45,259 nucleotides of DNA from a virus (taxonomy: Duplodnaviria; Heunggongvirae; Uroviricota; Caudoviricetes), in IMG/VR virus record IMGVR_UViG_2734482549_000013. One strand, 5' to 3'. A program made the position numbers and the translations under genes. Shown piece by piece: positions 8,932-43,500 of the stretch. Position 1 is the stretch's first letter, and the number at the start of each line of letters is the position of its first letter. The notes beneath the pieces are model-generated. The model had not been told where the DNA came from and made no database searches. It saw nothing but the letters and a program-made list of their open reading frames with translations.

Positions 8932-9789
8932 ATGCTGTTTGTGCTTATTCTAAGCCACCGGGCAGCATCATACGGGGCAATTATGGCCGCATTACCATAC
9001 ATGCAACTGTACATAGCTGATTACCTGGCTGACACCATGCATTTGTCAGCAGAGGAGCATGGTGCGTATTTGTTGCTGATGTTCAATTACTGGCAAACAG
9101 GAAAGCCAATACCTAAAAACAGGCTGGCAAAAATTGCCCGTCTGACTAACGAGCGATGGGCTGATGTTGAACCATCCTTGCAGGAGTTTTTTTGCGATAA
9201 CGGCGAGGAATGGGTGCATCTTCGGATTGAGGAAGATCTGGCATCAGTCAGGGAAAAATTAACCAAAAAATCAGCCGCAGGAAAAGCATCTGTTCAGGCC
9301 AGAAGAAGCAGAAAGGAAGCAGATGTTCAAACAAAACAAGAGAGAAATTTAACAGGTGTTCAAACAGATGTTGAAGTGGTGTTTGAACATGATGTCAACA
9401 CAAAGGCAACTAATAAAGATACAGATAAAGATCTAAAAACAGATCCCCCCCTAAATCCCCCCCGGGGGAATCGAGGTGTCAAAAAGTTTGACCCTCTGGA
9501 TATTGCTTTGCCGAACTGGATTTCTGTCTCGCTTTGGCGTGAGTGGGTTGAATTTCGCCAGGCATTGCGAAAACCGATTCGAACGGAGCAGGGCGCTAAC
9601 GGGGCGATACGGGAGCTGGAAAAATTCCGCCAGCAGGGTTTTTCACCTGAGCAGGTGATTCGACACAGCATCGCCAATGAATACCAGGGCTTGTTCGCGC
9701 CGAAAGGTGTTCGACCTGAGACGTTACTCCGACAGGTTAACACCGTCTCGTTACCGGATAGTGCGATCCCGCCAGGCTTCAGGGGGTAA
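8932..9789 (+). CDS. ydaU: Replication initiation-like protein YdaU, 285 aa
   Basis: Position (O-like slot upstream of DnaC-like helicase loader); sequence recalled as YdaU. Confidence 0.75.
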   Translation: MLFVLILSHRAASYGAIMAALPYMQLYIADYLADTMHLSAEEHGAYLLLMFNYWQTGKPIPKNRLAKIARLTNERWADVEPSLQEFFCDNGEEWVHLRIEEDLASVREKLTKKSAAGKASVQARRSRKEADVQTKQERNLTGVQTDVEVVFEHDVNTKATNKDTDKDLKTDPPLNPPRGNRGVKKFDPLDIALPNWISVSLWREWVEFRQALRKPIRTEQGANGAIRELEKFRQQGFSPEQVIRHSIANEYQGLFAPKGVRPETLLRQVNTVSLPDSAIPPGFRG

Positions 9790-9795
9790 CTGACC

Positions 9796-10542
9796 ATGAA
9801 AAATATTGCGACAGGCGACGTTCTTGAACGTATCCGCAGACTGGCCCCGTCACATGTAACCGCGCCATTCAAGACGGTAGCGGAGTGGCGCGAGTGGCAA
9901 CTTTCCGAAGGCCAGAAACGTTGTGAGGAGATCAACCGTCAGAATCGTCAGTTGCGGGTGGAAAAAATTCTGAATCGCTCTGGCATCCAGCCATTGCACC
10001 GCAAATGCTCGTTTTCGAATTACCAGGTGCAGAACGAAGCGCAGCGATACGCGTTGAGTCAGGCGAAATCCATCGCTGATGAACTGATGACCGGGTGTAC
10101 AAATTTTGCGTTCAGCGGAAAACCTGGTACCGGGAAGAACCACTTAGCGGCAGCTATCGGGAATCGCCTGCTGAAAGACGGTCAGACAGTGATTGTGGTT
10201 ACCGTGGCTGATGTTATGAGTGCCCTGCACGCCAGCTATGACGATGGGCAGTCAGGCGAAAAATTTTTGCGGGAACTATGCGAAGTGGATCTGCTGGTTC
10301 TTGATGAAATTGGCATTCAGCGCGAGACGAAAAACGAGCAGGTGGTGCTGCACCAGATTGTTGATCGCCGGACAGCGTCGATGCGCAGCGTGGGGATGCT
10401 GACAAACCTGAACTATGAGGCCATGAAAACATTGCTCGGCGAGCGGATTATGGATCGCATGACCATGAACGGCGGGCGATGGGTGAATTTTAACTGGGAG
10501 AGCTGGCGTCCGAATGTCGTCCAGCCAGGAATTGAGAAGTAA
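9796..10542 (+). CDS. ydaV: DnaC/IstB-like AAA+ helicase loader, 248 aa
   Basis: Walker [11 protein letters not shown] and Walker [10 protein letters not shown] read directly from the ORF. Confidence 0.85.
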
Positions 10543-10564
10543 TTTTTACCGGGAGGAAATTTTT

Positions 10565-11326
10565 ATGGAGACTGTTTTTGACGCACTGAAAGCAATGGGA
10601 AAAGCCACATCCATAGAACTTGCTGCGCGACTTGATATCAGTCGTGAAGAAGTGCTGAACGAACTATGGGAACTGAAAAAAGCTGGTTTCGTTGATAAAA
10701 GCGCGTACACCTGGCGTGTGGCTGATAACAACGTTCAGCAGGAACAGCCAATGCAGGCAGAACTGCCGGAAGAAACCACCACGGCAACTGTAGTGAAAAT
10801 CTCAGAGTGCGATTTAACCGCGACGATTGAACAACGCGGACCACAAACGGCGGATGAACTGGCTACGCTGTTCGGTACAACATCCCGCAAAGTTGCTTCA
10901 ACGCTGGCAATGGCAATCAGCAAAGGACGCCTGATTCGCGTAAACCAGAACAGTAAATTTCGTTACTGCATGCCGGGCGATAATTTACCAGCAGAGCCGA
11001 AAGCTGCATCGGTAGCGGAAACTGATGGTAAAGCCTTTCCTCAGCCAGCCGGTGTTGCGTTACCAGTACAGGAAGCGGCAACACAGGAAGATATTAAAAC
11101 AGAAACTGTGGCGGACATTGTGCAGTCGCTGCCATCGTTTACTGAAACGCAAGCGGATGACCTAGTTTTACCATCGCTGCATATGGCAAACCGCGAACTG
11201 CGTCGGGCGAAAAATCATGTCCAGAAGTGGGAGCGAGTCTGCGCCGCGCTGCGGGAGCTGAACAAGCACCGGGATATTGTCCGACAGATTGTCGATTCCT
11301 CCAGTCGTATTGTGTCGGAAAAGTGA
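10565..11326 (+). CDS. ydaW: Full-length YdaW-like protein, 253 aa from [10 protein letters not shown]
   Basis: GGGAGGAAA Shine-Dalgarno upstream of ATG at 10565; N-terminal region recalled as YdaW-like (recalled as truncated in the K-12 Rac remnant). Confidence 0.6.
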
Positions 11327-11341
11327 TTGCCGGAGGCGCTT

Positions 11342-11758
11342 ATGGCAAAAGTTTTTACACAGGAAGAGCGTGAAAAAATTAAGGAGCAGGTTGTTGAGTT
11401 GGTACGCCAGAGTGGGCGCGAGACGTTAAGGCAACTGGAGGCCAAGACAGGTGCGACAAGATATCTGATGAGCATTCTTGCCAGAGAGTTGGTTGCCAGT
11501 GGCGATGTATACAACTCTGGCTATGGGTTATTCCCGTCTGAACAGGCTCGTAAGGATTGGAAAAACGCCCGCAAAAAACTATCCAGGGCAAAGGTGAAAA
11601 AAACGGTTGTGGTTGATCCTGACCTTATCTGGTCATTACCAGACGGAGAAATACGCCGCTATGACAGGCGTCAGAACATAATCTGTCGCGAGTGCCGGAA
11701 GAGTGAAGTTATGAAACGTGTACTGGCATTTTATCAAGGAAATCTTCGGTATTTATAG
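11342..11758 (+). CDS. Hypothetical basic phage protein, 138 aa from MAKVFTQEER
   Basis: ORF with GGAGG Shine-Dalgarno at 11333-11337; no family recognised by eye. Confidence 0.5.
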   Translation: MAKVFTQEEREKIKEQVVELVRQSGRETLRQLEAKTGATRYLMSILARELVASGDVYNSGYGLFPSEQARKDWKNARKKLSRAKVKKTVVVDPDLIWSLPDGEIRRYDRRQNIICRECRKSEVMKRVLAFYQGNLRYL

Positions 11759-11896
11759 ACGTTACTAGATCAAAGAGCATTAGTTCATATGTAAATTGAC
11801 ATTTTTCTGGCACAGGGGAGAGCTAGCGTGGTTGTCCGCTTTGTGCCAATAGCGGACATTGCTGGCTCATGGTATGTTAGTTTAAGGAGGCAGGTT

Positions 11897-12919
11897 ATGC
11901 CCTGTATTTCGCTGTGGTATAATAGTTGCGCAATTGATACAAGGGAGCGTTACATCGTGAAAATTGTTTTCGAGGTTAATGGAAAGAAAGTTCCACTAAA
12001 ATCTTTAAAATACATAAGCAAAAAAGATCAACTCGAAGTAATGAAAAACTGGTTCTTTGAAAACTTTGAAGATCCGGCAAATGCTTGTCCGTATGAAAGT
12101 AGAGAAGGTGGCTATGCTTACATATATGGCGGGCCGTATGATGCGAGCGAAGAACTACAATCCATCTTCGGTCAATATGTTAAATCTGAGTATATTGAGG
12201 AATTAGTAGATGAATTACAAACACAATGTTTTGACTGGTCTGGAAACTCAAATAATATAGATGATTGGTACGATGATGATATCTACGACGCTGTAACGTC
12301 TTCCGGTAATCCGTATTTAAAATTCATTGATAATATCGATAAAATAAAAAAACTTGCAAAAGATAAAACTGAACAACAGCAAAAAAACCACTTGCTTAGT
12401 TTGCTCTACACGAATGTTATTACAGCTTTGGAAACGCTTTATGTTGAGCTATTCATTAATTCTATAGAGAAAGATGATGTCTACATAGCCAATTGTATAG
12501 AAAAAGGTAAGACTGAATTTAAAGTAAGCAAAGATATTGCTGCGTTGCCTTTCAAGGGTGAACCCATCGAGAAAATTAGGGGAGAGCTAATCAGGTCAAT
12601 CAAGGAACACTTGATCAGTGCAAGCTGGCATAGCACTAAAAAGGTAATCGACCGCTATGAAGCTACATTCGATATAAAAGTACAAAAAGACTGTCCGATA
12701 GAAGCTATTGAATTGGCAACCCTCAATCGAAATCACTTAGTGCATCGTGGTGGAAAGGATAAAGAAGGGAACCTCGTAGTGATTACAGACCAGGATCTTG
12801 AAACGCTGATTGAAAATGCATCGAACCTGGCAATTATGCTCTACAACAGTTTAAATGTAGCAACGAATAAAACCACCATTTTGCAACCAGATGACAAACC
12901 GTTCATTCATGAATTTTAA
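11897..12919 (+). CDS. Cargo gene A, 340 aa, AT-rich; C-terminal HEPN-like RNxxxH motif (LNRNHLVHRGG); candidate defense/abortive-infection effector
   Basis: AAGGAGG Shine-Dalgarno at 11884-11890, ATG at 11897; codon usage visibly AT-rich compared with flanking phage genes; motif at 12728-12745. Confidence 0.7.
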   Translation: MPCISLWYNSCAIDTRERYIVKIVFEVNGKKVPLKSLKYISKKDQLEVMKNWFFENFEDPANACPYESREGGYAYIYGGPYDASEELQSIFGQYVKSEYIEELVDELQTQCFDWSGNSNNIDDWYDDDIYDAVTSSGNPYLKFIDNIDKIKKLAKDKTEQQQKNHLLSLLYTNVITALETLYVELFINSIEKDDVYIANCIEKGKTEFKVSKDIAALPFKGEPIEKIRGELIRSIKEHLISASWHSTKKVIDRYEATFDIKVQKDCPIEAIELATLNRNHLVHRGGKDKEGNLVVITDQDLETLIENASNLAIMLYNSLNVATNKTTILQPDDKPFIHEF

Positions 12920-12934
12920 TAGCGCAGGTCATAC

Positions 12935-13936
12935 ATGGATATTCGCACACGAAAGACAAAATTTTTAGAGTCGTTAGATTCAACTGAAGTGATACGCAAA
13001 GCAGTAAGTCTCGCTATAGATTGCATTATTGATAATCATAATAGTAATGAAGATACCCCCTTAGTTATTACCAGCTATGATGATCTCTGTAGAATCCAGG
13101 TGCTAAATTATGTACAGGAGTTTTGCGAAGCTGCATTCCCTGATATGGATGAATATTACTTTAGTCCTAACATACTTCGCATCAACGGCAAGACTAGTGA
13201 AGAAGCTTGTATTAACTTAATTAAACTCTTAAGAAGTACAAAAGGCATGCTATTCTGGTCCGATGCCCCATCGTGGTTCGCTAGCCTCCCCGACGGATTA
13301 TTCCATGTTGTTAACATTGATCAAAAAATCGTTACTCGCGGCCTTAATAAGAAAAACTCTAAGCCGACAATAATCAATAAAGATTACAGTGTAGATACAC
13401 TACTATCAGAGCTATTTTTGAATGGCGCACACATGGAGCAACCCAACGTACACAACGTTTCTGAGGGAAACATGAAGTTCTATGATGAATGCCATGCTGG
13501 ATTAATCAGACCAATACCCGCTCCAATAGGCGCGTCATACGATGAAGAGATCACAATTAATTCTCCAGATTGGCAAAAGCTCGCGTGTGTAGCTTTACGC
13601 CGCTATCAGTCGAAGGAATGTCATGACGGAATGCAATGGGATACAACCGATCATGGTTGGACTGATGTAATCGCGTATCCATTCGTCGAAGAAATACAAT
13701 CAATGGATAATAGTGGTTATCGACAATGTTTAGTTGGGCTGGTCACAATAAACAATTCAAATGCAAATTCTCCGTACCTATCTACCGTTTGGATACATCC
13801 ATTTTATCGCAGGAGAGGGTTATTAAGTAAGTTATGGCCAAAATTACAAGAGTTATATGGAAGTAACTTCGAAATTGAGCGACCTAATGAAAATATGAAA
13901 GCATTTCTGAAAAGTGCGAAACACGCAGATTACTAA
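12935..13936 (+). CDS. Cargo gene B, 333 aa, AT-rich; C-terminal GNAT-like acetyltransferase motif (VWIHPFYRRRGLLSKL)
   Basis: Starts 15 nt after gene A stop (operon-like); motif A-like V-x-P-x-Y-R-x-x-G at about 13786-13826. Confidence 0.7.
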   Translation: MDIRTRKTKFLESLDSTEVIRKAVSLAIDCIIDNHNSNEDTPLVITSYDDLCRIQVLNYVQEFCEAAFPDMDEYYFSPNILRINGKTSEEACINLIKLLRSTKGMLFWSDAPSWFASLPDGLFHVVNIDQKIVTRGLNKKNSKPTIINKDYSVDTLLSELFLNGAHMEQPNVHNVSEGNMKFYDECHAGLIRPIPAPIGASYDEEITINSPDWQKLACVALRRYQSKECHDGMQWDTTDHGWTDVIAYPFVEEIQSMDNSGYRQCLVGLVTINNSNANSPYLSTVWIHPFYRRRGLLSKLWPKLQELYGSNFEIERPNENMKAFLKSAKHADY

Positions 13937-14113
13937 TTTATGAATCAGTCTGTGGAGTTAGGGTTGGTGTGAACAAGTAGGGTAAGAGCCTCAACGTGAT
14001 GCTATGCCGACCTGCTCCCTGAGAATTCACACAGAAGGCTGCTAGCAATGTCTGCAGATCGCTCAAAGCGGACTAAAATGTTGGCTTGTTTCTGACTTAG
14101 AGCATTTAAGGAA

Positions 14114-14338
14114 GTGCTGGTGGTGACTGGTTGTTGTGTTCCATTTCTACAGAATAAAATCACAGAAACTATACCCAATAGTTGTATTGAATCACTGACG
14201 AGACAGCCTCATATTTATCAGGACTGGTGTGCGTCTAATACAGGGGGTTGTCGTGCTGGTTCTCAAATGTGCGCTGGCTATTGCGGCTGTAATGGCAATT
14301 TATTGTCTTGCTGTTGTTCTTATGGAGCGGCTTTCTGA
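14114..14338 (+). CDS. Possible small Cys-rich peptide (11 Cys in 74 aa; GTG start); may be non-coding
   Basis: Track ORF; CRAGSQMCAGYCGCNGNLLSCCCSYG; weak start context. Confidence 0.2.
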   Translation: MLVVTGCCVPFLQNKITETIPNSCIESLTRQPHIYQDWCASNTGGCRAGSQMCAGYCGCNGNLLSCCCSYGAAF

Positions 14339-14497
14339 TTGATTACATACTGGCTAGAAAAAAGGTGTTACCTTGGTTTATCTTTGTCCGGCAAGGTGCG
14401 CTCATTAATCTTAAGTAAATTTATTGCTCAAGTATTCAGATTACTTCTTATGGTTGAAGTCTCCTGTCAATGTAGAACCAATATATTTACAAAAATG

Positions 14498-14545
14498 AGA
14501 CCCGTCGGGGATAGCCCTGCCGGGTCTGACTGTTAAAGCATTTTT
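14498..14545. terminator. Hairpin AGACCCG...CGGGTCT with flanking T/A runs between the cargo genes and the convergent yeaR-like gene
   Basis: Inverted repeat 14498-14504 / 14521-14527 read directly; T-run on the minus strand just beyond the stem. Confidence 0.45.
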
Positions 14546-14556
14546 AATATGATCAT

Positions 14557-14895
14557 CTATTTTTTGGTGCTATAGACTTTTTCGCCCGAAAAGTCTGGAG
14601 CGACCCAAAAGTTAATATTAAACTGAGCATCATCGCTTAGTTCAACACGGTGCCAGTATTGTGGTGGGCTTGTTGCAAAAGCGCCAGCATTAATGACTAC
14701 TTTTATCTCCGGTTCAGTAGCATTCTCATCAGTAAAACCATAATATGTTACAGTGCCTTCCATTACGCACAACTGCCCAAAAACACCTGCTGCTGTATTA
14801 TGATGTGTTAATAACGCTGAAGGTACGTTCTCTTTTGTGAAGAACGGAGTTGAGCGTTTGATTACCCAATCTTTAGGAATTCTCTTGTGTGTCAT
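14557..14895 (-). CDS. YeaR-like DUF1971 protein, 112 aa from MTHKRIPKDW
   Basis: Conserved pattern RSTPFF ... VMEG.V.Y.G..DE...EP ... AG.FA..PP..WH ... DD..FNI.F.VAP matches recalled E. coli YeaR. Confidence 0.65.
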   Translation of the reverse strand: MTHKRIPKDWVIKRSTPFFTKENVPSALLTHHNTAAGVFGQLCVMEGTVTYYGFTDENATEPEIKVVINAGAFATSPPQYWHRVELSDDAQFNINFWVAPDFSGEKVYSTKK

Positions 14896-15708
14896 AACCA
14901 CCTCCTCCAAAACATGCATTAAAAATGCATCTTTTGGAGGGTTATGTCAAGCTGTTATGAAACACATAATTGATATGTTGATTAGAGGAGAAGATAGAAT
15001 AAATATGGTTGTTTTTCGTATAACTATTTGTTTTACTTTTAGTTTATGCATTCTGTGTGTTAGGAATAAGTTATTAAAGTTTAATCAAAAAATCTCGATG
15101 TAGTCCACATAGATTACTGTTACTGAACCTTATTGTGTGTATTAGTTGTGTTCTGAAATTTCAGCTTAATTATTTATGATGTATTTTTTAACGATAAATA
15201 TTTTCCCAGGATACCTTTACTGTGTATATAAATAAATTATATACGCATAAATAATGTAAAGGCGTCCTTTTAGATATATCTTATCAAATGTTAATGACTT
15301 GAGTGGGAAATATGATTCCAGCAACTTATCATGTGGCTACTTTATAAAAATAATGCCCATATAAAACAACAAGCGAAAAGGATTACGGATAAAAAAGGAG
15401 CGAGATGTGCGAACTTGTTATTTTCCATGTTTAACCACCTTAAATAATTGATGATGACGGGATGATTGCATCTGTAATGCTTTTATTGAAATGTTATGAT
15501 AAAAAAGAACTTTTGCATAACATTAAAATGTAATTTATCTAATCGTTTTTAATAATAAGTGTCGTATTTCTATCCTTGTACCAGCTATTTGATATGTAGT
15601 GTTTGTTCATGCTATGTGGGGCTTTACACCATAGCCAGTTTATTTATACTTTATTCGTCAGCCTGAACAACTGGCATCTGCTGCGCTGCGCCATCGAGAG
15701 ATTGAGAA

Positions 15709-16308
15709 ATGGCGCATATACAACTGGTCAAACAAACCTCTTCTGGTTTACTTCTCCCGGCGACGCCGGAGAGTTGCGATTTTCTGCATCAAATCAAAAT
15801 AGGTGAGTGGATACACGCAGACTTTAAGCGTGTGCGTAACTACGCATTCCACAAGCGTTTTTTCAAACTCCTGCAACTGGGATTCGATTACTGGACTCCG
15901 GTCGGTGGGGCGATCACGCCTCGCGAACGAGAACTGCTGTCTGGTTTCGTTGATTACCTGTGCGAATCAGTTGGTCGGGAACACACGCCAGCCCTGAGTG
16001 ATGCCGCAGAGCAATACCTTAACACCGTTGCGACTCGTAGAACCCGGGATACGGCGTTGCTAAAGTCGTTTGAGGCTTTCCGCGAGTGGGTAACCATTCA
16101 GGCCGGATTTTACACCGAGCATATTTATCCGGACGGTAGCCGTGGGCGTCGGGCAAAATCCATCGCTTTTGCGAATATGGACGAAGTCGAGTTTCAGCAG
16201 GTTTATAAATCTGTACTGAATGTGCTGTGGAACTGGATTCTGTTCCGTAAATTCTCCTCTCAGGAGGAAGTTGAAAATGTGGCCGCACAACTACTGGAGT
16301 TTGCGTAA
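15709..16308 (+). CDS. nin-region phage protein, 199 aa (DUF1367-like by recollection)
   Basis: ORF immediately upstream of and overlapping the ybcO-like gene (ATGA overlap at 16305-16310). Confidence 0.5.
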   Translation: MAHIQLVKQTSSGLLLPATPESCDFLHQIKIGEWIHADFKRVRNYAFHKRFFKLLQLGFDYWTPVGGAITPRERELLSGFVDYLCESVGREHTPALSDAAEQYLNTVATRRTRDTALLKSFEAFREWVTIQAGFYTEHIYPDGSRGRRAKSIAFANMDEVEFQQVYKSVLNVLWNWILFRKFSSQEEVENVAAQLLEFA

Positions 16309-16598
16309 TGGTGAATTTACGTAAAGCGGCTAAAGGCCAGATGTGCCAGATCAGAATCCCTGGCTACTGCAATCACAATCCCGAAACCTCTGTGCTGGCG
16401 CATTACAGGCTGGCGGGGACGTGCGGAACAGCGACAAAACCACATGATATGCAGGCGGCGATAGCCTGTAGCTCATGCCACGATCTAATCGACGGGCGGG
16501 TAAAAACCAGCGATTACACCAAAGAAGAATTGCGCCTGATGCATGCTGAAGGGGTTTTTCGCACACAAGAAATCTGGAGAAAGAAAGGTCATTTATGA
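16308..16598 (+). CDS. YbcO-like (DUF1364) Cys-rich putative zinc-binding nuclease, 96 aa
   Basis: Length and Cys pattern (CQIRIPGYCN ... CSSCHDLID) resemble recalled DLP12 YbcO. Confidence 0.65.
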   Translation: MVNLRKAAKGQMCQIRIPGYCNHNPETSVLAHYRLAGTCGTATKPHDMQAAIACSSCHDLIDGRVKTSDYTKEELRLMHAEGVFRTQEIWRKKGHL

Positions 16599-17137
16599 TT
16601 TACCCAACGAATACAGGAAAAAGCGGAGAACACCTTCGCCTCACCACGCTGGAAAGTGTCTGGATTCAGGGAAAACTACGTATGTGGGGGCGCTGGTCGT
16701 ATATTGGCGGTGGCAGGTCAGGGAATATGTTCAATCAGTTGTTGGCATCCAAAAAACTGACGAAAACAGCCATTAATGAAGCCCTGCGCAGAATGAAAAA
16801 AGCGGGAATAGAGAAAGCTGAGCTGGAAGCGTTTTTGCGAGAGATGATCAACGGCAAGCAAAAGAGCTGGCTGGCGCATTGTACTGATGCAGAGGCGTTA
16901 TGTATTGATCGAGTCATAAGTGAGGTGCTGGCAGAGCATCCAGGATTGATTTGCATTCTCCGGCAACGCTATGAAGGGCGGGGGATGACTAAGCGCAAAA
17001 TGGCTGAATTGCTAAATGATGCACACCCAGAGTGGTGTTTTAGCACATGCGAAAAACGGATTGCTAATTGGTTAGCTGTTGCTGAGTATGCCCTATATAT
17101 TCCCATGCGTGAATCATTTGCTGAGAAAATGGCTTGA
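16595..17137 (+). CDS. Candidate late-gene antiterminator Q, 180 aa
   Basis: Last gene of the nin-like block, directly upstream of a strong intrinsic terminator and the lysis cassette; Cys pairs (HCTDAEALC, CFSTC); no sequence-level family match verified. Confidence 0.45.
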   Translation: MIYPTNTGKSGEHLRLTTLESVWIQGKLRMWGRWSYIGGGRSGNMFNQLLASKKLTKTAINEALRRMKKAGIEKAELEAFLREMINGKQKSWLAHCTDAEALCIDRVISEVLAEHPGLICILRQRYEGRGMTKRKMAELLNDAHPEWCFSTCEKRIANWLAVAEYALYIPMRESFAEKMA

Positions 17138-17216
17138 TTTCTTACGTATAAACTGCTTCAATTTTGCTATGCTTCGCAAAGCTGTATCGCGAGGCGGATT
17201 GCAGACATGGACATCG

Positions 17217-17244
17217 TAAAAAAACCGCTTAATGCGGTTTTTTT
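17217..17244 (+). terminator. Intrinsic terminator (tR'-like): AAAAAAACCGC-TTAAT-GCGGTTTTTTT
   Basis: Perfect stem with A-tract and T-tract read directly, about 80 nt downstream of the Q-like gene. Confidence 0.7.
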
Positions 17245-17563
17245 ACGTCAGGAAAGCAGGGGAGAATGCTGCTAGTTGGGCAACTGGTCTTTCTGCTCCA
17301 AATTATAACAGAGACCAGTTATAGTTTCGGTGCTGTGTTTTTTTTACAATATTGTGATAACACATTGCTGGCGGGAGTTTTGATATTTCTTGGCAGGGGC
17401 TGATGATGCGTTATCCTGATGTCGTCAACTCATATAAAATGAGATGAGAGATCATTGCAGGGTGGTTTGTAATTCGCTGTTTAGCGGGACAATATGTTGT
17501 CTGATACAAGACACCCGACGCCTCAGATTACTATAATAAAGACGAAGCATCCTTTGTATTGAC

Positions 17564-17590
17564 CAACCGCCTGTTTAGGCGGTTCTTTTT
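17564..17590 (+). terminator. Second intrinsic terminator-like hairpin: AACCGCC-TGTTTA-GGCGGTT followed by CTTTTTG
   Basis: 7-bp perfect stem plus T-run read directly. Confidence 0.5.
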
Positions 17591-18181
17591 GGGCTGGTTT
17601 ATTGTATGCCAAATGATTATTAAAAAGGTTGTGTTAATAACAAGATCCGAAATAATATGCCTGCATATTTTTATCTTGCTTATATTCTGCATATTGTGCA
17701 TAGCAGGCTCATCCCTGCAATCAAAACTGTATGATGAGTATTTTTTGTTTTCCTTTTTTCCAGTCATCTGATGATGACCTGCTTCTTTTTAATCCGGATC
17801 GACATCAGTTTTTTAAGATAATTCCTGCGAGTTATATGCATAAATGCCACAAACTCCGCATTTTATGTGGTTGGGAGTTGCCGGGCGCGCAGTGAGTTTG
17901 CTAAGAAAACTCCTGCATGGTGAATCCCCCTGTGCGGTGGGGTGATACCATTAACCTTTTCTGTCGCCGACAGGTATCACGAACATTTTGTTCACCGGGA
18001 GGCACCCGGCACCATGCACTTCAATAGATTCTCTCCACATTATGGATATTCTTTCAGAATATCCCACGCAGACTTTGTGTAAATGTTAACAAATGTGCGT
18101 TTTATTTGATCTGATTCGCTGTTTGAGCGTCCAAAACAACGGTATATATAATCCTTTACTATATGACATATGTGAGGAAAA

Positions 18182-18610
18182 ATGGGTTTTCGTAGCGCAT
18201 CAATTCTTACGTTGATTATTAGTGGGATTATTATCGGGTGCACTGATGCTGTATCGACAAATTATCATGACCGTACATCATATTACTCCGATAAAGCAAT
18301 AGAGACACAGTATGTGAGTTCATCTGAACGTACTTCTGATGTTAGTGAGGATATCCGTCTGTATGCCCATCAAATCAAGAGCGCCATCGAAAAACAGTTC
18401 GGGGATGCGAGTAAGTATTCAGGAAAAGAGTGTACACTGAGAATGCATATGGCCCCGAATGGCCTTCTACTGGAGGTTAAAAGAGAAAGTGGAGACCTCG
18501 ATTTATGTCGTGAAGCGATGAATGCGATAAAGAATGCTGATATACCTGCCCCCCCTTCGCCGGAAGTATATAAAGTATTTCAAAATGGGGTGCTGGATTT
18601 TAAACCCTGA
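18182..18610 (+). CDS. Lipoprotein with TolA C-terminal domain III-like domain, 142 aa
   Basis: Lipobox IIGC; C-terminal YAHQIKSAIEKQFGDASKYSGKECTLRMHMAPNGLLLEVKRESGDLDLCREAMNAIKNADIPAPPSPEVYKVFQNGVLDFKP aligns by eye with the recalled E. coli TolA C-terminus (... YAGQIKSAIESKF ... CTLRIKLAPDG ... VYEVFKNAPLDFKP). Confidence 0.7.
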   Translation: MGFRSASILTLIISGIIIGCTDAVSTNYHDRTSYYSDKAIETQYVSSSERTSDVSEDIRLYAHQIKSAIEKQFGDASKYSGKECTLRMHMAPNGLLLEVKRESGDLDLCREAMNAIKNADIPAPPSPEVYKVFQNGVLDFKP

Positions 18611-18760
18611 TATTTATTGTTTTGTAATAAACGGTTTCGGCTTAGGTTTGTTCTGACACAGCTACGGCACTGAGCTAAATTTAGCGGATAGTCAGCTCTG
18701 AGCCAGTGGCGGACGTAACAACTACTATTGCTGAGATTTTAATGGATTGAGGAGCAAGAA

Positions 18761-19156
18761 GTGGGATTAAAGAAAATCGTTATGTTGACTTTTTGGGTCG
18801 GTTTTGTTGCGGGATGCACACCTTTACACCCTTCAGATTGCCACAAAACTACTGCTACAGGTAGTTGCAGTTCAGGACGCTGGGATGATCAGGATGAATG
18901 GGGGGCGCAAGCGCGGGGAATCAGAGCTGCAATTAATGCCAAACTTGATGAGCCGCATAACTGGAAAGGGAAAAAATGCAGGTTGCATATGGAATTCTCT
19001 CAGGATGGCACGGCGTTAAAAATATCTACCAGTAACGGTGATAAAGCCTATTGCGAAGCGATAAAGTCCGCAGCTCATAAAGCCAAATTTCCGGCCTTCA
19101 ACAATCCGGAAGTCTACAGAGATTTTCAGAAATCTGGCTTTGACATGCGAGGTTAG
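18761..19156 (+). CDS. Second, more divergent TolA-III-like lipoprotein, 131 aa, GTG start
   Basis: Lipobox VAGC; shared pattern K.C.L.M ... G..L ... C ... A..KA.FPA...PEVY..FQ with the upstream gene; GAGGAG Shine-Dalgarno. Confidence 0.65.
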   Translation: MGLKKIVMLTFWVGFVAGCTPLHPSDCHKTTATGSCSSGRWDDQDEWGAQARGIRAAINAKLDEPHNWKGKKCRLHMEFSQDGTALKISTSNGDKAYCEAIKSAAHKAKFPAFNNPEVYRDFQKSGFDMRG

Positions 19157-19407
19157 CTCTTCAATTACTATATCTCATTCATAGCAAACTGACAGATTTG
19201 ATGATGTTCTATATACGAAACCTGTGATGTCAAGTCTGAGCTAATACAAATAAACATAATATCAGAGAAATACATTTTATTAGCTCGCTACGGCGAGCTT
19301 TTTATATTGCATCGTCTCCAGCATATATATCAATTAAGGCTCTGATTGATGTGTCTGAAAGCCTACACATAATAACTATGCCATCCGTTCCGTGCGGAGG
19401 TGAGGCT

Positions 19408-19623: not shown

Positions 19624-20123
19624 TGCCTCCATCATTACGAAAAGTCGTTGCTGCTGCTATTGGTGGCGGAGCAATTGCTATAGCATCAGTGTTAATCACT
19701 GGCCCAAGTGGTAACGATGGTCTGGAAGGTGTCAGCTACATACCATACAAAGATATTGTTGGTGTATGGACTGTATGTCACGGGCATACAGGAAAAGACA
19801 TCATGCTCGGTAAAACGTATACCAAAGCAGAATGCAAAACACTCTTGAATAAAGACCTTGCCACTGTCGCCAGACAAATTAACCCGTACATCAAAGTCGA
19901 TATACCGGAAACAACGCGCGGCGCTCTTTACTCATTCGTTTACAACGTGGGTGCTGGCAATTTCAGAACATCGACGCTTCTTCGCAAAATAAACCAGGGC
20001 GATATCAAAGGCGCATGTGATCAGCTACGTCGCTGGACATATGCTGGCGGTAAGCAATGGAAAGGTCTCATGACTCGTCGTNGTGAGATTGAGCGTGAAA
20101 TCTGTTTGTGGGGTCAGCAATGA
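19623..20123 (+). CDS. SAR endolysin (lysozyme with N-terminal signal-anchor-release domain), 166 aa; contains one ambiguous base (n at 20082)
   Basis: Gly/Ala-rich weakly hydrophobic N-terminus ([20 protein letters not shown]) followed by lysozyme-like domain; start overlaps holin stop (TAATG). Confidence 0.8.
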
Positions 20124-20584: not shown

Positions 20585-20721
20585 AATCTTAACTACAATA
20601 TGATTCATTTTGATGATTGTTTCATAAGGAACAGTGAAGTAAGATCTAAGAGGAGTTAAATTTTATACAGTATAATCATAATATTGCAGCAAGGTGGTTA
20701 TAATTGAAAGAATATTTAGAT

Positions 20722-22179
20722 ATGAATACATCTCATGTAAGAGTTGTTACTCATATGTGTGGGTTCCTGGTTTGGCTCTATAGTCTTTCAATGTTGCCAC
20801 CAATGGTTGTAGCATTGTTTTATAAAGAAAAAAGCCTGTTCGTTTTCTTTATAACTTTCGTTATATTTTTTTGCATTGGTGGCGGAGCGTGGTATACAAC
20901 TAAGAAATCTGGCATTCAATTACGTACCCGTGATGGGTTTATTATAATTGTAATGTTTTGGATTTTGTTTTCTGTTATTAGTGCATTCCCTTTATGGATT
21001 GACTCAGAACTTAATTTAACGTTCATTGATGCTCTGTTTGAAGGGGTTTCTGGAATAACAACAACAGGAGCAACTGTAATTGATGATGTTAGTTCATTAC
21101 CTCGGGCATATTTGTACTATCGGTCACAGTTAAATTTTATAGGTGGTTTAGGAGTTATTGTTCTGGCGGTTGCAGTATTGCCATTATTGGGTATTGGTGG
21201 TGCAAAGCTTTATCAGTCAGAAATGCCGGGGCCATTTAAGGATGACAAACTCACTCCCCGCCTGGCCGATACGTCACGGACACTGTGGATAACTTATTCT
21301 TTATTAGGTATTGCTTGTATTGTCTGTTATAGACTTGCAGGAATGCCTTTGTTTGATGCTATTTGTCACGGGATTTCCACAGTTTCGCTTGGTGGTTTCT
21401 CAACTCATAGCGAGAGTATCGGATATTTTAATAACTATTTGGTTGAGCTGGTGGCTGGTTCTTTTTCCCTGCTATCGGCTTTCAACTTCACTCTTTGGTA
21501 TATTGTTATTAGCAGAAAAACGATAAAACCTTTAATCAGAGATATTGAACTTCGTTTCTTTCTGTTAATAGCCTTAGGGGTGATCATTGTTACCTCTTTC
21601 CAGGTCTGGCATATAGGTATGTATGACTTGCATGGAAGTTTTATTCATTCGTTTTTTCTTGCCAGCTCCATGCTCACTGATAATGGTTTAGCTACGCAGG
21701 ATTATGCAAACTGGCCCACGCACACGATAGTGTTTTTGCTGTTGTCAAGTTTCTTTGGGGGATGTATAGGTTCAACCTGTGGTGGAATTAAGTCACTTCG
21801 ATTTCTTATACTTTTCAAACAAAGCAAACACGAGATAAATCAGCTTTCTCATCCCAGAGCGTTGTTGAGTGTAAATGTAGGAGGGAAGATAGTTACAGAT
21901 CGTGTAATGAGGTCTGTATGGAGTTTCTTTTTTCTTTATACTCTCTTCACGGTGTTTTTTATACTGGTGTTAAATGGTATGGGATATGATTTTCTTACAT
22001 CATTTGCAACAGTGGCTGCATGTATTAATAATATGGGATTAGGTTTTGGGGCTACTGCATCGTCATTCGGAGTGCTTAATGACATTGCAAAATATTTAAT
22101 GTGCATAGCTATGATTCTTGGTCGCCTTGAAATTTATCCTGTTATTATATTGTTTTCAGGTTTTTTTTGGCGCTCCTAA
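20722..22179 (+). CDS. trkG: TrkG potassium uptake protein, 485 aa from MNTSHVRVVT; AT-rich cargo gene
   Basis: Multi-pass membrane protein; N-terminus recalled as TrkG; visibly AT-rich relative to phage structural genes. Confidence 0.9.
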   Translation: MNTSHVRVVTHMCGFLVWLYSLSMLPPMVVALFYKEKSLFVFFITFVIFFCIGGGAWYTTKKSGIQLRTRDGFIIIVMFWILFSVISAFPLWIDSELNLTFIDALFEGVSGITTTGATVIDDVSSLPRAYLYYRSQLNFIGGLGVIVLAVAVLPLLGIGGAKLYQSEMPGPFKDDKLTPRLADTSRTLWITYSLLGIACIVCYRLAGMPLFDAICHGISTVSLGGFSTHSESIGYFNNYLVELVAGSFSLLSAFNFTLWYIVISRKTIKPLIRDIELRFFLLIALGVIIVTSFQVWHIGMYDLHGSFIHSFFLASSMLTDNGLATQDYANWPTHTIVFLLLSSFFGGCIGSTCGGIKSLRFLILFKQSKHEINQLSHPRALLSVNVGGKIVTDRVMRSVWSFFFLYTLFTVFFILVLNGMGYDFLTSFATVAACINNMGLGFGATASSFGVLNDIAKYLMCIAMILGRLEIYPVIILFSGFFWRS

Positions 22180-40569: not shown

Positions 40570-43500
40570 ATGGGTAAAGGCAGCAGTAAGGGGCATACCC
40601 CGCGCGAAGCGAAGGACAACCTGAAGTCCACGCAGCTGCTGAGTGTGATCGATGCCATCAGCGAAGGGCCGGTTGAAGGTCCGGTGGATGGATTAAAAAG
40701 CGTGCTGCTGAACAGTACGCCGGTGCTGGACAGTGAGGGGAATACCAACATCTCCGGCGTCACGGTGGTGTTCCGGGCAGGTGAGCAGGAGCAGTCACCG
40801 CCGGAGGGGTTTGAATCCTCCGGCTCCGAGACGGTGCTGGGTACGGAAGTGAAATATGACACGCCGATCACCCGGACCATCACGTCGGCAAACATTGACC
40901 GACTGCGTTTTACCTTCGGTGTACNNNNNNNNNNNNNNNNNNNNNNNNNNNNNNNNNNNNNNNNNNNNNNNNNNNNNNNNNNNNNNNNNNNNNNNNNNNN
41001 NNNNNNNNNNNNNNNNNNNNNNNNNNNNNNNNNNNNNNNNNNNNNNNNNNNNNNNNNNNNNNNNNNNNNNNNNNNNNNNNNNNNNNNNNNNNNNNNNNNN
41101 NNNNNNNNNNNNNNNNNNNNNNNNNNNNNNNNNNNNNNNNNNNNNNNNNNNNNNNNNNNNNNNNNNNNNNNNNNTCATCGATGTGAAACAGTGCTACCCG
41201 AACACGGCACTGGTCGGCGTACAGGTGGATTCGGAGCAGTTCGGCAGCCAGCAGGTGAGCCGTAATTATCATCTTCGCGGGCGCATTCTGCAGGTGCCGT
41301 CGAACTATAATCCGCAGACGCGGCAATACAGCGGTATCTGGGACGGAACGTTAAAACCGGCATACAGCAACAACATGGCCTGGTGTCTGTGGGATATGCT
41401 GACCCATCCGCGCTATGGCATGGGGAAACGTCTTGGTGCGGCAGATGTGGATAAATGGGCGCTGTATGTCATCGGCCAGTACTGTGACCAGTCGGTGCCG
41501 GACGGCTTTGGCAGCACGGAGCCGCGCATCACCTGTAATGCCTGGCTGACCACACAGCGCAAGGCGTGGGATGTGCTCAGTGATTTCTGCTCGGCGATGC
41601 GCTGTATGCCGGTATGGAACGGGCAGACGCTGACGTTCGTGCAGGACCGACAGTCGGATAAGGTGTGGGCCTATAACCGCAGTAATGTGGTGATGCCGGA
41701 TGATGGCGCGCCGTTCCGCTACAGTTTCAGCGCCCTGAAAGACCGCCATAATGCCGTTGAGGTGAACTGGATTGACCCGGATAACGGCTGGGAGACGGCG
41801 ACAGAGCTTGTGGAGGATACGCAGGCCATTGTCCGTTACGGTCGTAACGTCACGAAGATGGATGCCTTTGGCTGTACCAGCCGGGGGCAGGCACACCGCG
41901 CCGGGCTGTGGCTGATTAAAACGGAACTGCTGGAGACGCAGACCGTGGATTTCAGCGTGGGTGCTGAAGGGCTTCGTCATGTACCGGGCGATGTCATTGA
42001 AATCTGCGATGATGACTATGCCGGTATCCGCACCGGCGGGCGCGTGCTGGCGGTGAACAGCCAGACCCGGACGCTGACGCTCGACCGTGAAATCACGCTG
42101 CCATCCTCCGGCACCACGCTGATAAGCCTGGTTGACGGGCAGGGGAATCCGGTCAGCGTGGAGGTCCAGTCCGTCACCGACGGCGTGAAGGTAAAAGTGA
42201 GCCGTGTTCCTGACGGTGTTGCTGAATACAGCGTGTGGGGGCTGAAGCTGCCGACGCTGCACCAGCGATTGTTCCGCTGCGTGAGTANNNNNNNNNNNNN
42301 NNNNNNNNNNNNNNNNNNNNNNNNNNNNNNNNNNNNNNNNNNNNNNNNNNNNNNNNNNNNNNNNNNNNNNNNNNNNNNNNNNNNNNNNNNNNNNNNNNNN
42401 NNNNNNNNNNNNNNNNNNNNNNNNNNNNNNNNNNNNNNNNNNNNNNNNNNNNNNNNNNNNNNNNNNNNNNNNNNNNNNNNNNNNNNNNNNNNNNNNNNNN
42501 NNNNNNTTCAGATACAGCGTAACGGTGGCTGGGTGACGGAAAAAGACATCACCATTAAGGGCAAAACCACCTCGCAGTATCTGGTCTCGGTGGTGGTGGA
42601 TAACCTGCCTCCGCGCCCGTTCAGTATCCGGATGCGCAGGATGACACCGGACAGCACCACAGACCAGCTGCAGAACAAAACGCTCTGGTCGTCATACACC
42701 GAAATCATCGATGTGAAACAGTGCTACCCGAACACTGCACTGGTCGGCGTACAGGTGGACTCGGAGCAGTTCGGCAGCCAGCAGGTGAGTCGTAATTATC
42801 ATCTTCGCGGGCGCATTCTGCAGGTGCCGTCGAACTATAACCCGCAGACGCGACAATACAGCGGTATCTGGGACGGAACGTTAAAACCAGCATACAGCAA
42901 CAACATGGCCTGGTGTCTGTGGGATATGCTGACCCACCCGCGCTACGGCATGGGGAAACGTCTTGGTGCGGCGGATGTGGACAAATGGGCGCTGTATGTC
43001 ATCGGCCAGTACTGCGACCAGTCAGNNNNNNNNNNNNNNNNNNNNNNNNNNNNNNNNNNNNNNNNNNNNNNNNNNNNNNNNNNNNNNNNNNNNNNNNNNN
43101 NNNNNNNNNNNNNNNNNNNNNNNNNNNNNNNNNNNNNNNNNNNNNNNNNNNNNNNNNNNNNNNNNNNNNNNNNNNNNNNNNNNNNNNNNNNNNNNNNNNN
43201 NNNNNNNNNNNNNNNNNNNNNNNNNNNNNNNNNNNNNNNNNNNNNNNNNNNNNNNNNNNNNNNNNNNNNNNNNNNNNNNNNNNNNNNNNNNNNNNNNNNN
43301 NNNNNNNNNNNNNTTGACCCGGATAACGGCTGGGAGACGGCGACAGAGCTTGTGGAGGATACGCAGGCCATTGCCCGTTACGGTCGTAACGTCACGAAGA
43401 TGGATGCTTTTGGCTGTACCAGCCGGGGGCAGGCACACCGCGCCGGGCTGTGGCTGATTAAAACAGAACTGCTGGAAACGCAGACCGTGGACTTCAGCGT

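Follow-up and report, generated by a model that had tools for sequence, protein, structure and literature searches.

In this Rac-like prophage, the AT-rich block that follows the replication module and precedes the nin-like module raises the question of whether it is a single acquired island or an assembly of separately exchanged parts. The window, i.e., the whole stretch of DNA that was analysed, is 45,259 nt long and has a GC content of 0.461 (46.1%), compared with 0.377 (37.7%) for the block at 11760-15708. The flanks are at about 49-50%, with 0.498 in the replication module (8932-11758) and 0.491 across the genes from DUF1367 to Q (15709-17137). The block is third lowest in GC among 827 same-size sliding blocks, the lowest of which (0.374) starts at 11701, and the spacer at 14896-15708, with 31% GC, is the lowest-GC 800 bp in the window. 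A first-pass annotation had claimed a drop in composition from about 11.8 to 15.7 kb, and the sliding-window GC bears this out: the deviation is genuine, and the possibility, allowed for in that annotation, that GC calculation would reveal no significant deviation does not hold. The accompanying picture, in which AT-rich accessory cargo of a Rac-like prophage separates its replication module from its nin-like module, is also supported.

The interval between lygF and DUF1367

The block lies between the replication module ydaU-ydaV-ydaW-lygF on the left and the DUF1367-ybcO-Q module on the right. Its conserved left flank is lygF (11327-11758, plus strand), a DUF977 gene of the Ren-like exclusion protein family (Pfam PF06163, 108.6 bits; PHROG 142 'Ren-like exclusion protein'), and its conserved right flank is the DUF1367 gene (15709-16308, plus strand) in the NinB position (PF07105, 326.7 bits; PHROG 319 NinB/Orf). 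Related intervals were anchored on lygF at the left (47 intervals) and related loci on DUF1367 (96 loci). The interval ranges in length from 2.2 kb to over 5.8 kb and is AT-rich in every case, at a GC of 0.34-0.47. The 47 intervals contain 20 cargo types. Among the other occupants are matches to the PADLOC models of Type II restriction-modification, a methyltransferase with an OLD/AriA-like ATPase, a CARF-ADA protein with a SIR2 ThsA-like protein, HEC-06, AbiL-like, Hp2/Hp3, and IetA/IetS (E values of 9e-143 and 8e-301 for the last). Relatives therefore do not carry the same block with uniform composition, as the first-pass annotation had considered possible, since the contents of the slot differ between them. 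Judged from these comparisons, the block is a variable accessory-gene (defence/moron) slot of Rac-like lambdoid prophages that holds many cargoes, and not one insertion. No account of a lygF/DUF977-to-DUF1367 hot spot was found in the papers searched. A prophage defence/moron hot spot is an ordinary kind of locus; the particulars of this one are new, and every function is one that we infer.

The HEPN/GNAT gene pair

The two-gene cassette that had been claimed for the block is present. Comparison with other elements delimits a mobile two-gene unit at 11898-13978, and the same span occurs at 86% nucleotide identity in an Aeromonas defence island, adjoining Thoeris genes. The pair is also found at 98-100% identity on IncF/IncFIB plasmids, and its identity is at least 99% in 208 of 209 matching genomes. 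Gene 1 (11957-12919, plus strand; 320 aa) encodes an N-terminal HEPN/RES-NTD1-like domain and a C-terminal HEPN domain with an RxxxxH motif. The most likely start from sequence comparison is GTG 11957, preferred over ATG 11897 (which would give 340 aa) because the GTG and its ribosome-binding site are kept in Dickeya, Yersinia, and Aeromonas, and the upstream ATG is not. Gene 2 (12935-13936, plus strand; 333 aa) encodes an N-terminal alpha/beta domain, to which no family name was given, and a C-terminal GNAT-fold acyltransferase domain. Gene 1 is preceded on the plus strand by two extended -10-like elements, TGgTATGTT (11870-11878) and TGgTATAAT (11915-11923), which are putative promoter elements, and the pair probably has its own extended -10 promoter or promoters. 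TGnTATGTT-like sequences are kept in the Dickeya and Yersinia loci that contain gene 1 only, whereas TGnTA(T/C)AAT is kept where the pair occurs in Aeromonas and on plasmids.

Gene 1 is a predicted RNase effector, and the two genes form a candidate anti-phage pair. Most likely, gene 1 would be a self-inhibited RNase that is switched on by a competing phage and leads to abortive infection, and gene 2, a rare GNAT-fold acyltransferase, would act either as a second independent effector or as a modifier of gene 1. Neither gene matched any model in PADLOC v2.0, and the window's own gene 1 falls under the Pfam cut-offs. Each gene is also found without the other, so that any functional coupling is putative. 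Homologs of gene 1 alone, with 56-75% identity, were found in Dickeya, Yersinia, and Aeromonas, including by tblastn. In a P2-like prophage, gene 1 alone adjoins a gene with an ApeA_NTD1 domain, in the interval from the gpA-like replication gene to ogr/portal that we take to be a defence hot spot, and it is also found alone at an Aeromonas prophage end. Gene 2 alone occurs in defence-island and ICE contexts.

An unlikely alternative to phage defence is that the pair is a toxin-antitoxin/addiction module that stabilizes a mobile element, in which a HEPN toxin would, by analogy with HEPN-MNT, be restrained through acetylation by its GNAT partner. However, an MNT or RHH partner is absent, and gene 2, like gene 1, stands alone elsewhere. 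Since gene 1 homologs in Dickeya, Yersinia, and Aeromonas can stand without gene 2, gene 1 cannot need it as an antidote.

The linker, the DUF1971 gene and the AT-rich spacer

To the right of the pair is a conserved linker (14059-14357, plus strand), with shared boundaries at approximately 14059 and at 14357/14370 in BLASTN comparison with related loci. Many different cargoes are found on its left and a hok or DUF1971 module on its right, and in phages Evi, Tritos, and mEp460 the same linker DNA precedes hok/mokW. Within it is a gene for a 29-aa hydrophobic peptide (MLVLKCALAIAAVMAIYCLAVVLMERLSD; 14253-14342, plus strand), with a GTG start and an AGGGGG/AGGAGG ribosome-binding site, which is annotated sporadically as 'putative membrane protein'. 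Variable sites number 6, 2, and 16 at the three codon positions, changes relative to the window are 35 synonymous to 20 nonsynonymous, and each of the 12 peptide variants is 29 aa long. The Cys-rich small ORF reported in the first-pass annotation is in the wrong frame. This 74-codon ORF (14114-14338, plus strand) reads the 29-aa gene out of frame, together with noncoding DNA, and is not a gene: its frame has 2 synonymous to 48 nonsynonymous changes, with the variable sites on codon position 1, and is broken by indels in the related loci L047, L075, L006, and L055. Its product had no match in a collection of 15 billion proteins.

The convergent yeaR-like DUF1971 gene, as claimed, is present at 14557-14895 on the minus strand. 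It is monocistronic and encodes a 112-aa protein matching PF09313 (91.9 bits, E value 2.6e-26), with 41% identity to E. coli K-12 YeaR and E values of 3.5e-59 to PDB 3DL3 and 1.6e-24 to 3BB6 (YeaR). Its start is most likely ATG 14895, favoured because a GGAGGAGG ribosome-binding site precedes it and the RefSeq start is identical; ATG 14919 appears less likely, and the spacer is thus taken as 14896-15708. The view that a DUF1971 gene is unexpected in a phage is correct for deposited phage genomes, where it occurs in 3 of 50,697 records, each an induced Rac-like E. coli prophage, but not for E. coli prophages, where it is common (at least 450 of 5,426 genomes); it was also found in 37 IMG/VR contigs. 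Between the convergent plus- and minus-strand units is a GC-rich hairpin (14491-14534, inverted repeat I4), to which overlapping windows give fold z-scores of -2.5 to -2.9, that is probably the terminator of the DUF1971 transcript, the minus-strand stem being followed by CATTTTTGT.

Upstream of the DUF1971 gene is an NsrR-type 11-1-11 operator at 14911-14933 (minus strand, AAGATGCATTTTTAATGCATGTT). We scored it with a weight matrix of 26 published CFT073 sites (PMC5320621, Table 4), and its 27.2 bits are exceeded among the matrix sites only by ytfE. The yeaR gene is described as an established NsrR target and was induced 160-fold in nitrate-grown CFT073 (PMC5320621). Every one of the 36 viral-contig copies that include upstream sequence has the phage operator at this position, and none of 200 random windows reached its score. 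A putative DUF1971 promoter at 14922-14950 on the minus strand consists of a -35 TTGACA (14950-14945), a 17-nt spacer, and a -10 CATTTT (14927-14922), and the layout TTGACR-17-CATxTT recurs in a divergent locus, L152. The -10 is weak, with 3 of 6 consensus positions, the spacing from the -35 to a better TTTAAT/TATAAT hexamer is 21 nt, and neither promoter was listed in a consensus promoter scan. Because the near-consensus operator overlaps this promoter, NsrR repression of DUF1971 is predicted. Most likely, NsrR would repress the gene in the lysogen, and nitric oxide or nitrosative stress would turn it on, as for chromosomal yeaR. The AT-rich stretch does contain a regulatory input, as had been suggested, but the one found serves DUF1971 only and not the whole island.

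The left part of the spacer (14896-15340) is specific to the DUF1971 module, and the right part (15341-15708) is also present in hok-bearing prophages. Although the first-pass annotation saw no convincing ORF in this stretch of about 0.8 kb, an unannotated 28-aa hydrophobic ORF (MENNKFAHLAPFLSVILFACCFIWALFL; 15342-15428, minus strand) with an AAGGTGG Shine-Dalgarno sequence is intact at every one of 60 related loci. Its 14 peptide variants are each 28 aa, and in E. coli W it is in frame at approximately 76% nucleotide identity. It has no internal indels, compared with many in its flanks; substitutions per codon position (50/147/191) display only a moderate third-position bias, and the peptide had no match in the 15-billion-protein collection. 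Downstream, the imperfect inverted repeat I3 (15208-15268), for which both strands give fold z-scores of -3.9 to -4.8, may be its terminator. Facing DUF1367 from upstream is a promoter-like element, TTTACA-16-TATACT (15623-15650, plus strand), the best consensus match of the region (10 of 12), whose hexamers are invariant across two sequence clades. The small RNA that had been envisaged in this stretch found no match to a known family in Rfam, the conserved content being the small ORF and the promoter-like hexamers.

Mosaic structure and relation to known systems

Of 5,426 E. coli genomes, 13 have the full 11760-15708 combination, 205 have the HEPN/GNAT pair, and at least 450 have the DUF1971 module; conserved module boundaries lie at 11898/13978, 14059/14357, and 15341. 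Among the sampled intervals with both anchor genes, 13 contain DUF1971, 15 hok, 15 neither, and none both. On this comparative evidence, at least four modules assort independently: the 2.08-kb pair, the 300-bp linker, the DUF1971 gene, and the 370-bp pre-DUF1367 segment. The block would then be a chain of independently exchanged cassettes, with conserved linkers between them that probably serve as recombination joints. Slot 1 (approximately 11760-14058) would hold the mobile pair; the linker would encode the 29-aa membrane peptide; slot 2 (14358-15340) would hold the yeaR-like gene on the opposite strand, with hok there in sister prophages; and the conserved last segment (15341-15708) would contribute the minus-strand 28-aa membrane-peptide ORF and the promoter-like element toward DUF1367. 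We consider it likely that a hot spot, a cassette chain, an NsrR-controlled DUF1971 gene, and small ORFs together explain the locus. The composition, the boundaries of the modules and their independent distribution, the protein folds, the coding constraint on both small ORFs, and the presence and conservation of the operator are observed directly, whereas anti-phage function, RNase activity, NsrR control, promoter use, and recombination at the linkers are inferred.

The unequal prevalences and separate boundaries argue against the single inserted 4-kb island of the first-pass annotation. In its fuller form, an H-NS-silenced island that was acquired horizontally in a single insertion and takes its regulation from the 0.8-kb stretch, this reading is quite improbable, even though GC is uniformly low across the block and the whole block is 99.8-100% identical in the 12 other genomes that have it: the pair moves alone onto plasmids and into Aeromonas, and the operator and promoter face the DUF1971 gene only. 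In E. coli, H-NS typically targets AT-rich DNA of approximately 30% GC. AT content by itself makes silencing of the block plausible, but the nucleation motif of H-NS shows no enrichment (9 matches across the window versus 4.7 expected, only 2 of these in the block). It is very unlikely that the spacer is decaying filler, its small ORFs, palindromes, and NsrR-like site being chance or functionless remnants. The lack of an Rfam match, promoter- and terminator-like sites no commoner than in shuffled sequence, and the IS elements tolerated in the region in several genomes would fit such decay. However, none of 3,000 composition-matched random spacers reached the operator score, and the operator is kept at 28.1 bits in L152, where the flank is different. 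Furthermore, length, start, ribosome-binding site, and stop of the 28- and 29-aa ORFs are kept across clades of approximately 75-88% identity, indels gather in the ORF flanks, and the promoter hexamers do not change, in contrast to the spacer that separates them.

The DUF1971 gene resembles the E. coli yeaR-yoaG operon of the NsrR regulon in its product and in its upstream 11-1-11 operator (27.2 bits versus 22.9 bits for the K-12 yeaR site with the same matrix). Unlike that operon, it lacks yoaG, no NarL 7-2-7 site was seen at it by eye, and its operator is 15 nt from the start codon, compared with about 67 nt in K-12 yeaR, with unrelated upstream sequences; its product is much closer to 3DL3 than to YeaR. 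In sister lambdoid prophages, hok of hok/sok sits where DUF1971 does, between the same linker and pre-DUF1367 segment, whereas the window's slot is without hok. The 29- and 28-aa ORFs have no sequence relationship to Hok, and we make no claim of an antisense RNA for this slot. For gene 1, HepS, a single HEPN protein of the Salmonella prophage Gifsy-1 that is an abortive-infection anticodon nuclease (PMC13043305), is a precedent for a prophage-encoded single HEPN protein, with no detectable sequence relationship. Unlike HepS, gene 1 has a HEPN/RES-NTD1-type N-terminal domain, groups with RiboL-PSP-type HEPN families, and is paired in the window with a GNAT-fold protein. In common with the P2 and P4 prophage/satellite defence hot spots (Rousset et al. 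2022, PMC9122126) and with lambdoid 'moron' slots, the locus has conserved phage genes on either side of a highly variable, AT-rich segment, the occupants of which in sister phages match models of known defence systems, including restriction-modification and Iet. The present locus differs in belonging to the Rac-like lambdoid family, in its position between lygF/DUF977 and DUF1367, and in its compound structure of a cargo slot, a micro-ORF linker, a slot for hok, DUF1971, or neither, and a micro-ORF segment.

Composition and occupancy of the lygF-DUF1367 interval

The prophage is a Rac-like lambdoid element of E. coli, and a 100%-identical stretch of strain JP538 carries, in order, recE, racC, kilR, sieB, repressor/cro-like genes, ydaT, ydaU, ydaV, DUF1627 (ydaW), DUF977 (lygF), two hypothetical proteins, DUF1971 on the opposite strand, DUF1367, DUF1364/ybcO, DUF1133 (Q-like), the lysis genes and trkG. 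The first-pass annotation had reported a marked fall in GC content from 11760 to 15708, between lygF and DUF1367. Sliding-window calculation agrees: the GC content of this block is 0.377, compared with 0.461 for the window, 0.498 for the replication module and 0.491 for DUF1367 through Q, and the block ranks third lowest of 827 equal-length sliding blocks, the minimum beginning at 11701. The compositional claim therefore holds, and the genes that had been listed for the block are present, with corrections to some. The spacer between the DUF1971 and DUF1367 genes (14896-15708) is the lowest-GC 800 bp of the window, at 31%.

Two further low-GC stretches were seen. One, at about 17138-19400, lies downstream of the Q-like gene, contains two TolA-like genes in the identical RefSeq record, and occupies the site between Q and the lysis genes where morons are classically found; the other, at about 20719-22176, is trkG. 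Besides a single N at 20082, the window contains N runs at 40925-41174 (250 bases), 42288-42506 (219 bases) and 43026-43313 (288 bases), which interleave with blocks of high GC (0.55-0.61) towards the right end; masking therefore affects the GC values in that part.

Using the DUF1367 gene as an anchor, 96 related loci were fetched. In loci with lygF within 6 kb, the lygF-DUF1367 interval ranges from 2.2 to 5.8 kb and is AT-rich in every case (GC 0.34-0.47), with 20 cargo types found in 47 intervals. Representative cargo of sister elements matched PADLOC models for a Type II methyltransferase with a restriction enzyme, a methyltransferase with an OLD/AriA-like ATPase, CARF-ADA with a SIR2 ThsA-like protein, HEC-06, AbiL-like and Hp2/Hp3 proteins, and IetA/IetS (E values of 9e-143 and 8e-301). 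The E. coli W slot is occupied by a DUF262-family gene, an AAA ATPase gene and a hypothetical gene, and still other genes occupy it in deposited phages. Of the sampled intervals in which both anchor genes are present, 13 have DUF1971, 15 have hok, 15 have neither and none has both. The flanks are thus conserved and the content between them variable, and sister elements hold known defence systems in this slot, which is the signature of a prophage defence or moron hot spot. Some part of the region is matched in 4,183 of the 5,426 E. coli genomes searched.

The block had been proposed to be an inserted island with a non-coding stretch that looks like H-NS-silenced foreign DNA, and the reading of it as a single H-NS-silenced island is only partly correct. 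Comparison with related prophages resolves a hot spot filled by modules with separate distributions: the whole 5.1-kb combination is present in 13 of 5,426 complete E. coli genomes, the first two genes alone (11897-13978) in 205 genomes (with at least 99% identity in 208 of 209 matching genomes), and the DUF1971 module with the spacer (14358-15708) in at least 450. The final 370 bp (15341-15708) recurs in about 700 further genomes, at about 75% identity, downstream of hok. The conserved linker at about 14059-14357 has many different cargoes to its left and either hok or the DUF1971 module to its right, and phages Evi, Tritos and mEp460 have this linker DNA ahead of hok/mokW. The block shows no enrichment of the H-NS nucleation motif TCGATAAATT; H-NS silencing of xenogeneic DNA there would be plausible from its AT-richness.

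Insertion sequences were observed in homologues of 11300-16400: IS2 in NZ_CP084096, ISSen4 in NZ_CP073936 and IS1B in NZ_CP182331. An IS3-family element lies between the DUF1971 gene and DUF1367 in strain EC02 (locus L009, 2761-3989). Insertions seem to be either tolerated or attracted by the AT-rich spacer.

The HEPN and GNAT-fold gene pair

Gene 1 (11957-12919, plus strand) encodes a HEPN-domain protein. Its start is most likely GTG 11957, which is the RefSeq start and is retained together with its ribosome-binding site in Dickeya, Yersinia and Aeromonas; the alternative ATG 11897 is not conserved in these genera. The protein has the all-alpha HEPN fold and the catalytic Rx4-6H motif, R278 and H283 (RNHLVH; 340-aa numbering) being invariant in 54 aligned homologues. 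The window protein scored 21.8-22.2 bits against PF18870 HEPN_RES_NTD1, below the Pfam gathering threshold of 27.4, and gave no match to PF18735 HEPN_RiboL-PSP at E<=5; among the 54 homologues there are 36 with a PF18870 match and 24 with a PF18735 match (best E value 7e-11). Full-length relatives proved rare, numbering 19 representatives (E<=1e-30) among 1.84 billion, and the C-terminal domain also occurs as unnamed stand-alone proteins of 150-180 aa.

Gene 2 (12935-13936, plus strand) encodes a protein whose C-terminal domain has the GNAT fold. Its score against Pfam Acetyltransf_1 is 19.9 bits, with a cut-off of 20.7. A conserved HPFYRRxGKL, read by eye as RRxGxL, is a partial fit to the Q/RxxGxG/A acetyl-CoA loop. 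The protein has no homology to the putative acetyltransferase that occupies the same slot in phage Evi.

The two genes travel together as one unit, and each is also found without the other, so that obligate linkage is rejected. The pair adjoins Thoeris genes in an Aeromonas island, at 86% identity over exactly 11898-13978, and plasmid copies with 98-100% identity occur on an IncF resistance plasmid and an IncFIB plasmid with phage-type genes. Gene 1 without gene 2 is found in Dickeya, at one end of an Aeromonas prophage and in a Yersinia P2-like prophage, where it adjoins an ApeA_NTD1-domain gene between gpA and ogr/portal, a position that we take to be the known hot spot for defence genes in P2. 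A more distant gene 1 relative has an FRG-domain protein as its partner. With tblastn among the methods, gene 2 was found on its own next to an Abi_2 gene, next to Mrr/HEPN_Toprim_N/BrxCD genes, within an ICE and on a plasmid-like contig. In one locus (L158, 441-1593, aligned to 12848-14006) only gene 2 is present, at 77.5% nucleotide identity, together with the last approximately 70 nt of gene 1, and this hints that at least some solo copies of gene 2 may be the pair after deletion. Extended -10-like elements (TGgTATGTT and TGgTATAAT) upstream of gene 1 suggest that the pair could be expressed independently in the lysogen.

Two toxin-antitoxin arrangements were considered. A HEPN-MNT system would require an adjacent MNT nucleotidyltransferase partner; the partner fold here is GNAT, and homologues of gene 1 also occur without any partner. 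In a GNAT-RHH system of the TacAT/AtaRT type, the toxin has approximately 170 aa and is preceded by an RHH antitoxin gene; gene 2 encodes 333 aa with an extra N-terminal domain, the gene upstream of it encodes the HEPN protein rather than an RHH/DUF1778 antitoxin, and no RHH/DUF1778 antitoxin was found beside a stand-alone relative of its C-terminal domain. Such stand-alone relatives are all unnamed and have no toxin-antitoxin partner. We read gene 1 as a predicted self-contained, sensor-coupled HEPN RNase of the abortive-infection type, for which HepS of Gifsy-1 is an experimentally characterized precedent (PMC13043305).

Neither gene matches a system model of PADLOC-DB v2.0, in which gene 1 returned only noise (E>=0.011) and gene 2 nothing; PADLOC and NCBIfam searches with genes 1 and 2 and the small peptides encoded in the block returned nothing useful, and profile searches of both gene families against PDB sequences returned nothing. 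None of the papers searched treats RiboL-PSP HEPN function or a HEPN and GNAT defence pair. Occurring in 205 genomes, and also on plasmids from clinical isolates, the pair is a compact candidate that lends itself to direct testing.

The DUF1971 gene and its predicted NsrR operator

The DUF1971 gene (14557-14895, minus strand) encodes a member of the DUF1971/YeaR/TehB N-terminal family (PF09313, 91.9 bits with a cut-off of 23.1) with 41% identity to K-12 YeaR. Its PDB matches are 3BB6 (YeaR), with an E value of 1.6e-24, and 3DL3, with one of 3.5e-59, the latter being the solved structure of a 119-aa protein named tellurite resistance protein B. Because 3DL3 is far closer to the prophage protein than is E. 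coli's own YeaR, the prophage gene is not a recent duplicate of the host gene. The first-pass annotation had called a DUF1971 gene unexpected in a phage, and it is indeed rare, being found in three of 50,697 deposited phage records, all of them Rac-like; none of the papers searched deals with a phage-borne DUF1971. A GC-rich hairpin (14491-14534) lies between the DUF1971 gene and the plus-strand units.

Directly upstream of the gene is an NsrR-type operator, AAGATGCATTTTTAATGCATGTT (14933-14911, minus strand), with an 11-1-11 inverted-repeat structure. Against a weight matrix of the 26 distinct NsrR sites of E. coli CFT073 (PMC5320621, Table 4) it scores 27.2 bits, exceeded only by ytfE. Among 3,000 random spacers of matched composition and 200 random sequences of 45 kb, none scored as high. 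A putative and perfect -35 element, TTGACA (14950-14945, minus strand), lies 17 nt from CATTTT, a placement by which the operator would cover the -10 region and the probable transcription start. All 36 IMG/VR copies with upstream sequence keep the operator in the same place (17-28 bits), including a divergent copy with only 78% protein identity and a different flank, in which a site of 28.1 bits accompanies TTGACG-17-CATATT. A separate NsrR site (22.9 bits) precedes yeaR in K-12, in upstream DNA unrelated to that of the prophage copy, and yeaR is described as a known NsrR target, with 160-fold induction in nitrate-grown CFT073 (PMC5320621). The score, the conservation and the yeaR precedent together make it most likely that the DUF1971 gene is a nitric oxide-derepressed prophage moron under predicted NsrR control. 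No NarL 7-2-7 site like that of K-12 yeaR was seen by eye in 14950-15100. NsrR/nitric oxide control is a concrete and cheap hypothesis for DUF1971, a family with solved structures.

Nested inverted repeats (14886-14966) surround the DUF1971 start, with a minus-strand fold z-score of -6.9. The 17-nt arms (14904-14920 and 14924-14940) lengthen the NsrR site and take in the Shine-Dalgarno sequence, and the outer 13-nt arms (14886-14898 and 14954-14966) take in the ATG; in a read-in transcript from upstream the ribosome-binding site and start codon would be sequestered, whereas in a transcript from the proposed promoter they would not. Covariation in the operator palindrome is mixed, with two compensatory changes in one variant subgroup and poorer pairing in another.

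Small ORFs, spacer elements and relation to known systems

A Cys-rich small ORF had been listed downstream of the pair; its 74-aa product is absent from all databases searched, indels break the frame of its upstream half in several loci, and codon changes relative to the window are 2 synonymous to 48 non-synonymous in its frame. We therefore reject it as a gene. The conserved frame is that of a 29-aa ORF, MLVLKCALAIAAVMAIYCLAVVLMERLSD (GTG 14253 to TGA 14342, plus strand; ribosome-binding site AGGGGG/AGGAGG), in which the changes are 35 synonymous to 20 non-synonymous. In a comparison of 13 distinct homologous sequences, codon positions 1/2/3 of this frame hold 6/2/16 of the variable sites within 14256-14339. 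The product is occasionally annotated as a putative membrane protein.

Nor is the 0.8-kb spacer devoid of a convincing ORF, as had been thought. A 28-aa ORF, MENNKFAHLAPFLSVILFACCFIWALFL (15342-15428, minus strand; ribosome-binding site AAGGTGG), is intact in 60 of 60 loci, and its 14 variants all encode 28 aa; it has no indels, of which there are many in the flanking DNA, and its third-position bias is only moderate. The product is absent from a 15-billion-protein collection. Both ORFs encode small hydrophobic peptides under coding constraint, as do type I toxins; the sole promoter-like site antisense to the 28-aa ORF is a weak one on the plus strand (15326-15354). Both small ORFs are conserved, and they escape annotation pipelines or are called only now and then.

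A small RNA had also been suggested for the spacer, a proposal that found no backing in an Rfam 15 scan of 11300-16400 at E<=1, which matched no family beyond two chance-level hits (E 0.23 and 0.38); the prophage sRNA svsR is encoded at the cI 3' end, outside the region. Fold z-scores mark two places with inverted repeats, 15208-15268 and the surroundings of the operator. An imperfect 19-nt inverted repeat (15485-15529, 79% complementary), situated upstream of the 28-aa ORF, overlaps the well-conserved TTTGCATAACATTAAAAT and could be an operator or a weak terminator. Upstream of DUF1367 is a promoter-like TTTACA-16-TATACT (15623-15650), whose hexamers are invariant across two clades and whose spacer varies. 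The approximately 70 nt from this site to the DUF1367 start (15640-15708) are near-invariant (mismatch fraction 0.005-0.03), the DNA just upstream being about 20% divergent. This conservation exceeds the need of a plain leader and may reflect an RNA element or a protein-binding site. A consensus promoter and terminator scan gave counts no higher than in shuffles and missed the proposed promoters.

All functional statements on the block are inferences. A tentative joint reading, which we consider rather unlikely to hold as a whole, is that the HEPN and GNAT-fold proteins form a new two-gene anti-phage system, a 2.1-kb unit moving between prophages, plasmids and chromosomal defence islands, in which acylation by gene 2 would cooperate with or gate the gene 1 RNase; that the DUF1971 gene is wired to the host nitric oxide sensor NsrR; and that the micro-ORFs encode new small membrane proteins, possibly toxin-like. 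If the NsrR wiring is true, a signal of mammalian innate immunity would turn on a prophage-borne function. Prophage hot spots have so far been productive ground for new anti-phage systems, and this slot of Rac-like prophages, which are common across E. coli, now has exact anchors: the lygF 3' end, the 300-bp linker and the DUF1367 5' region. As a kind of feature, the prophage accessory hot spot is well known; new here are its definition in Rac-like phages, the mobile HEPN/GNAT candidate system, the yeaR paralogue with its predicted NsrR wiring, and the two overlooked micro-ORFs.
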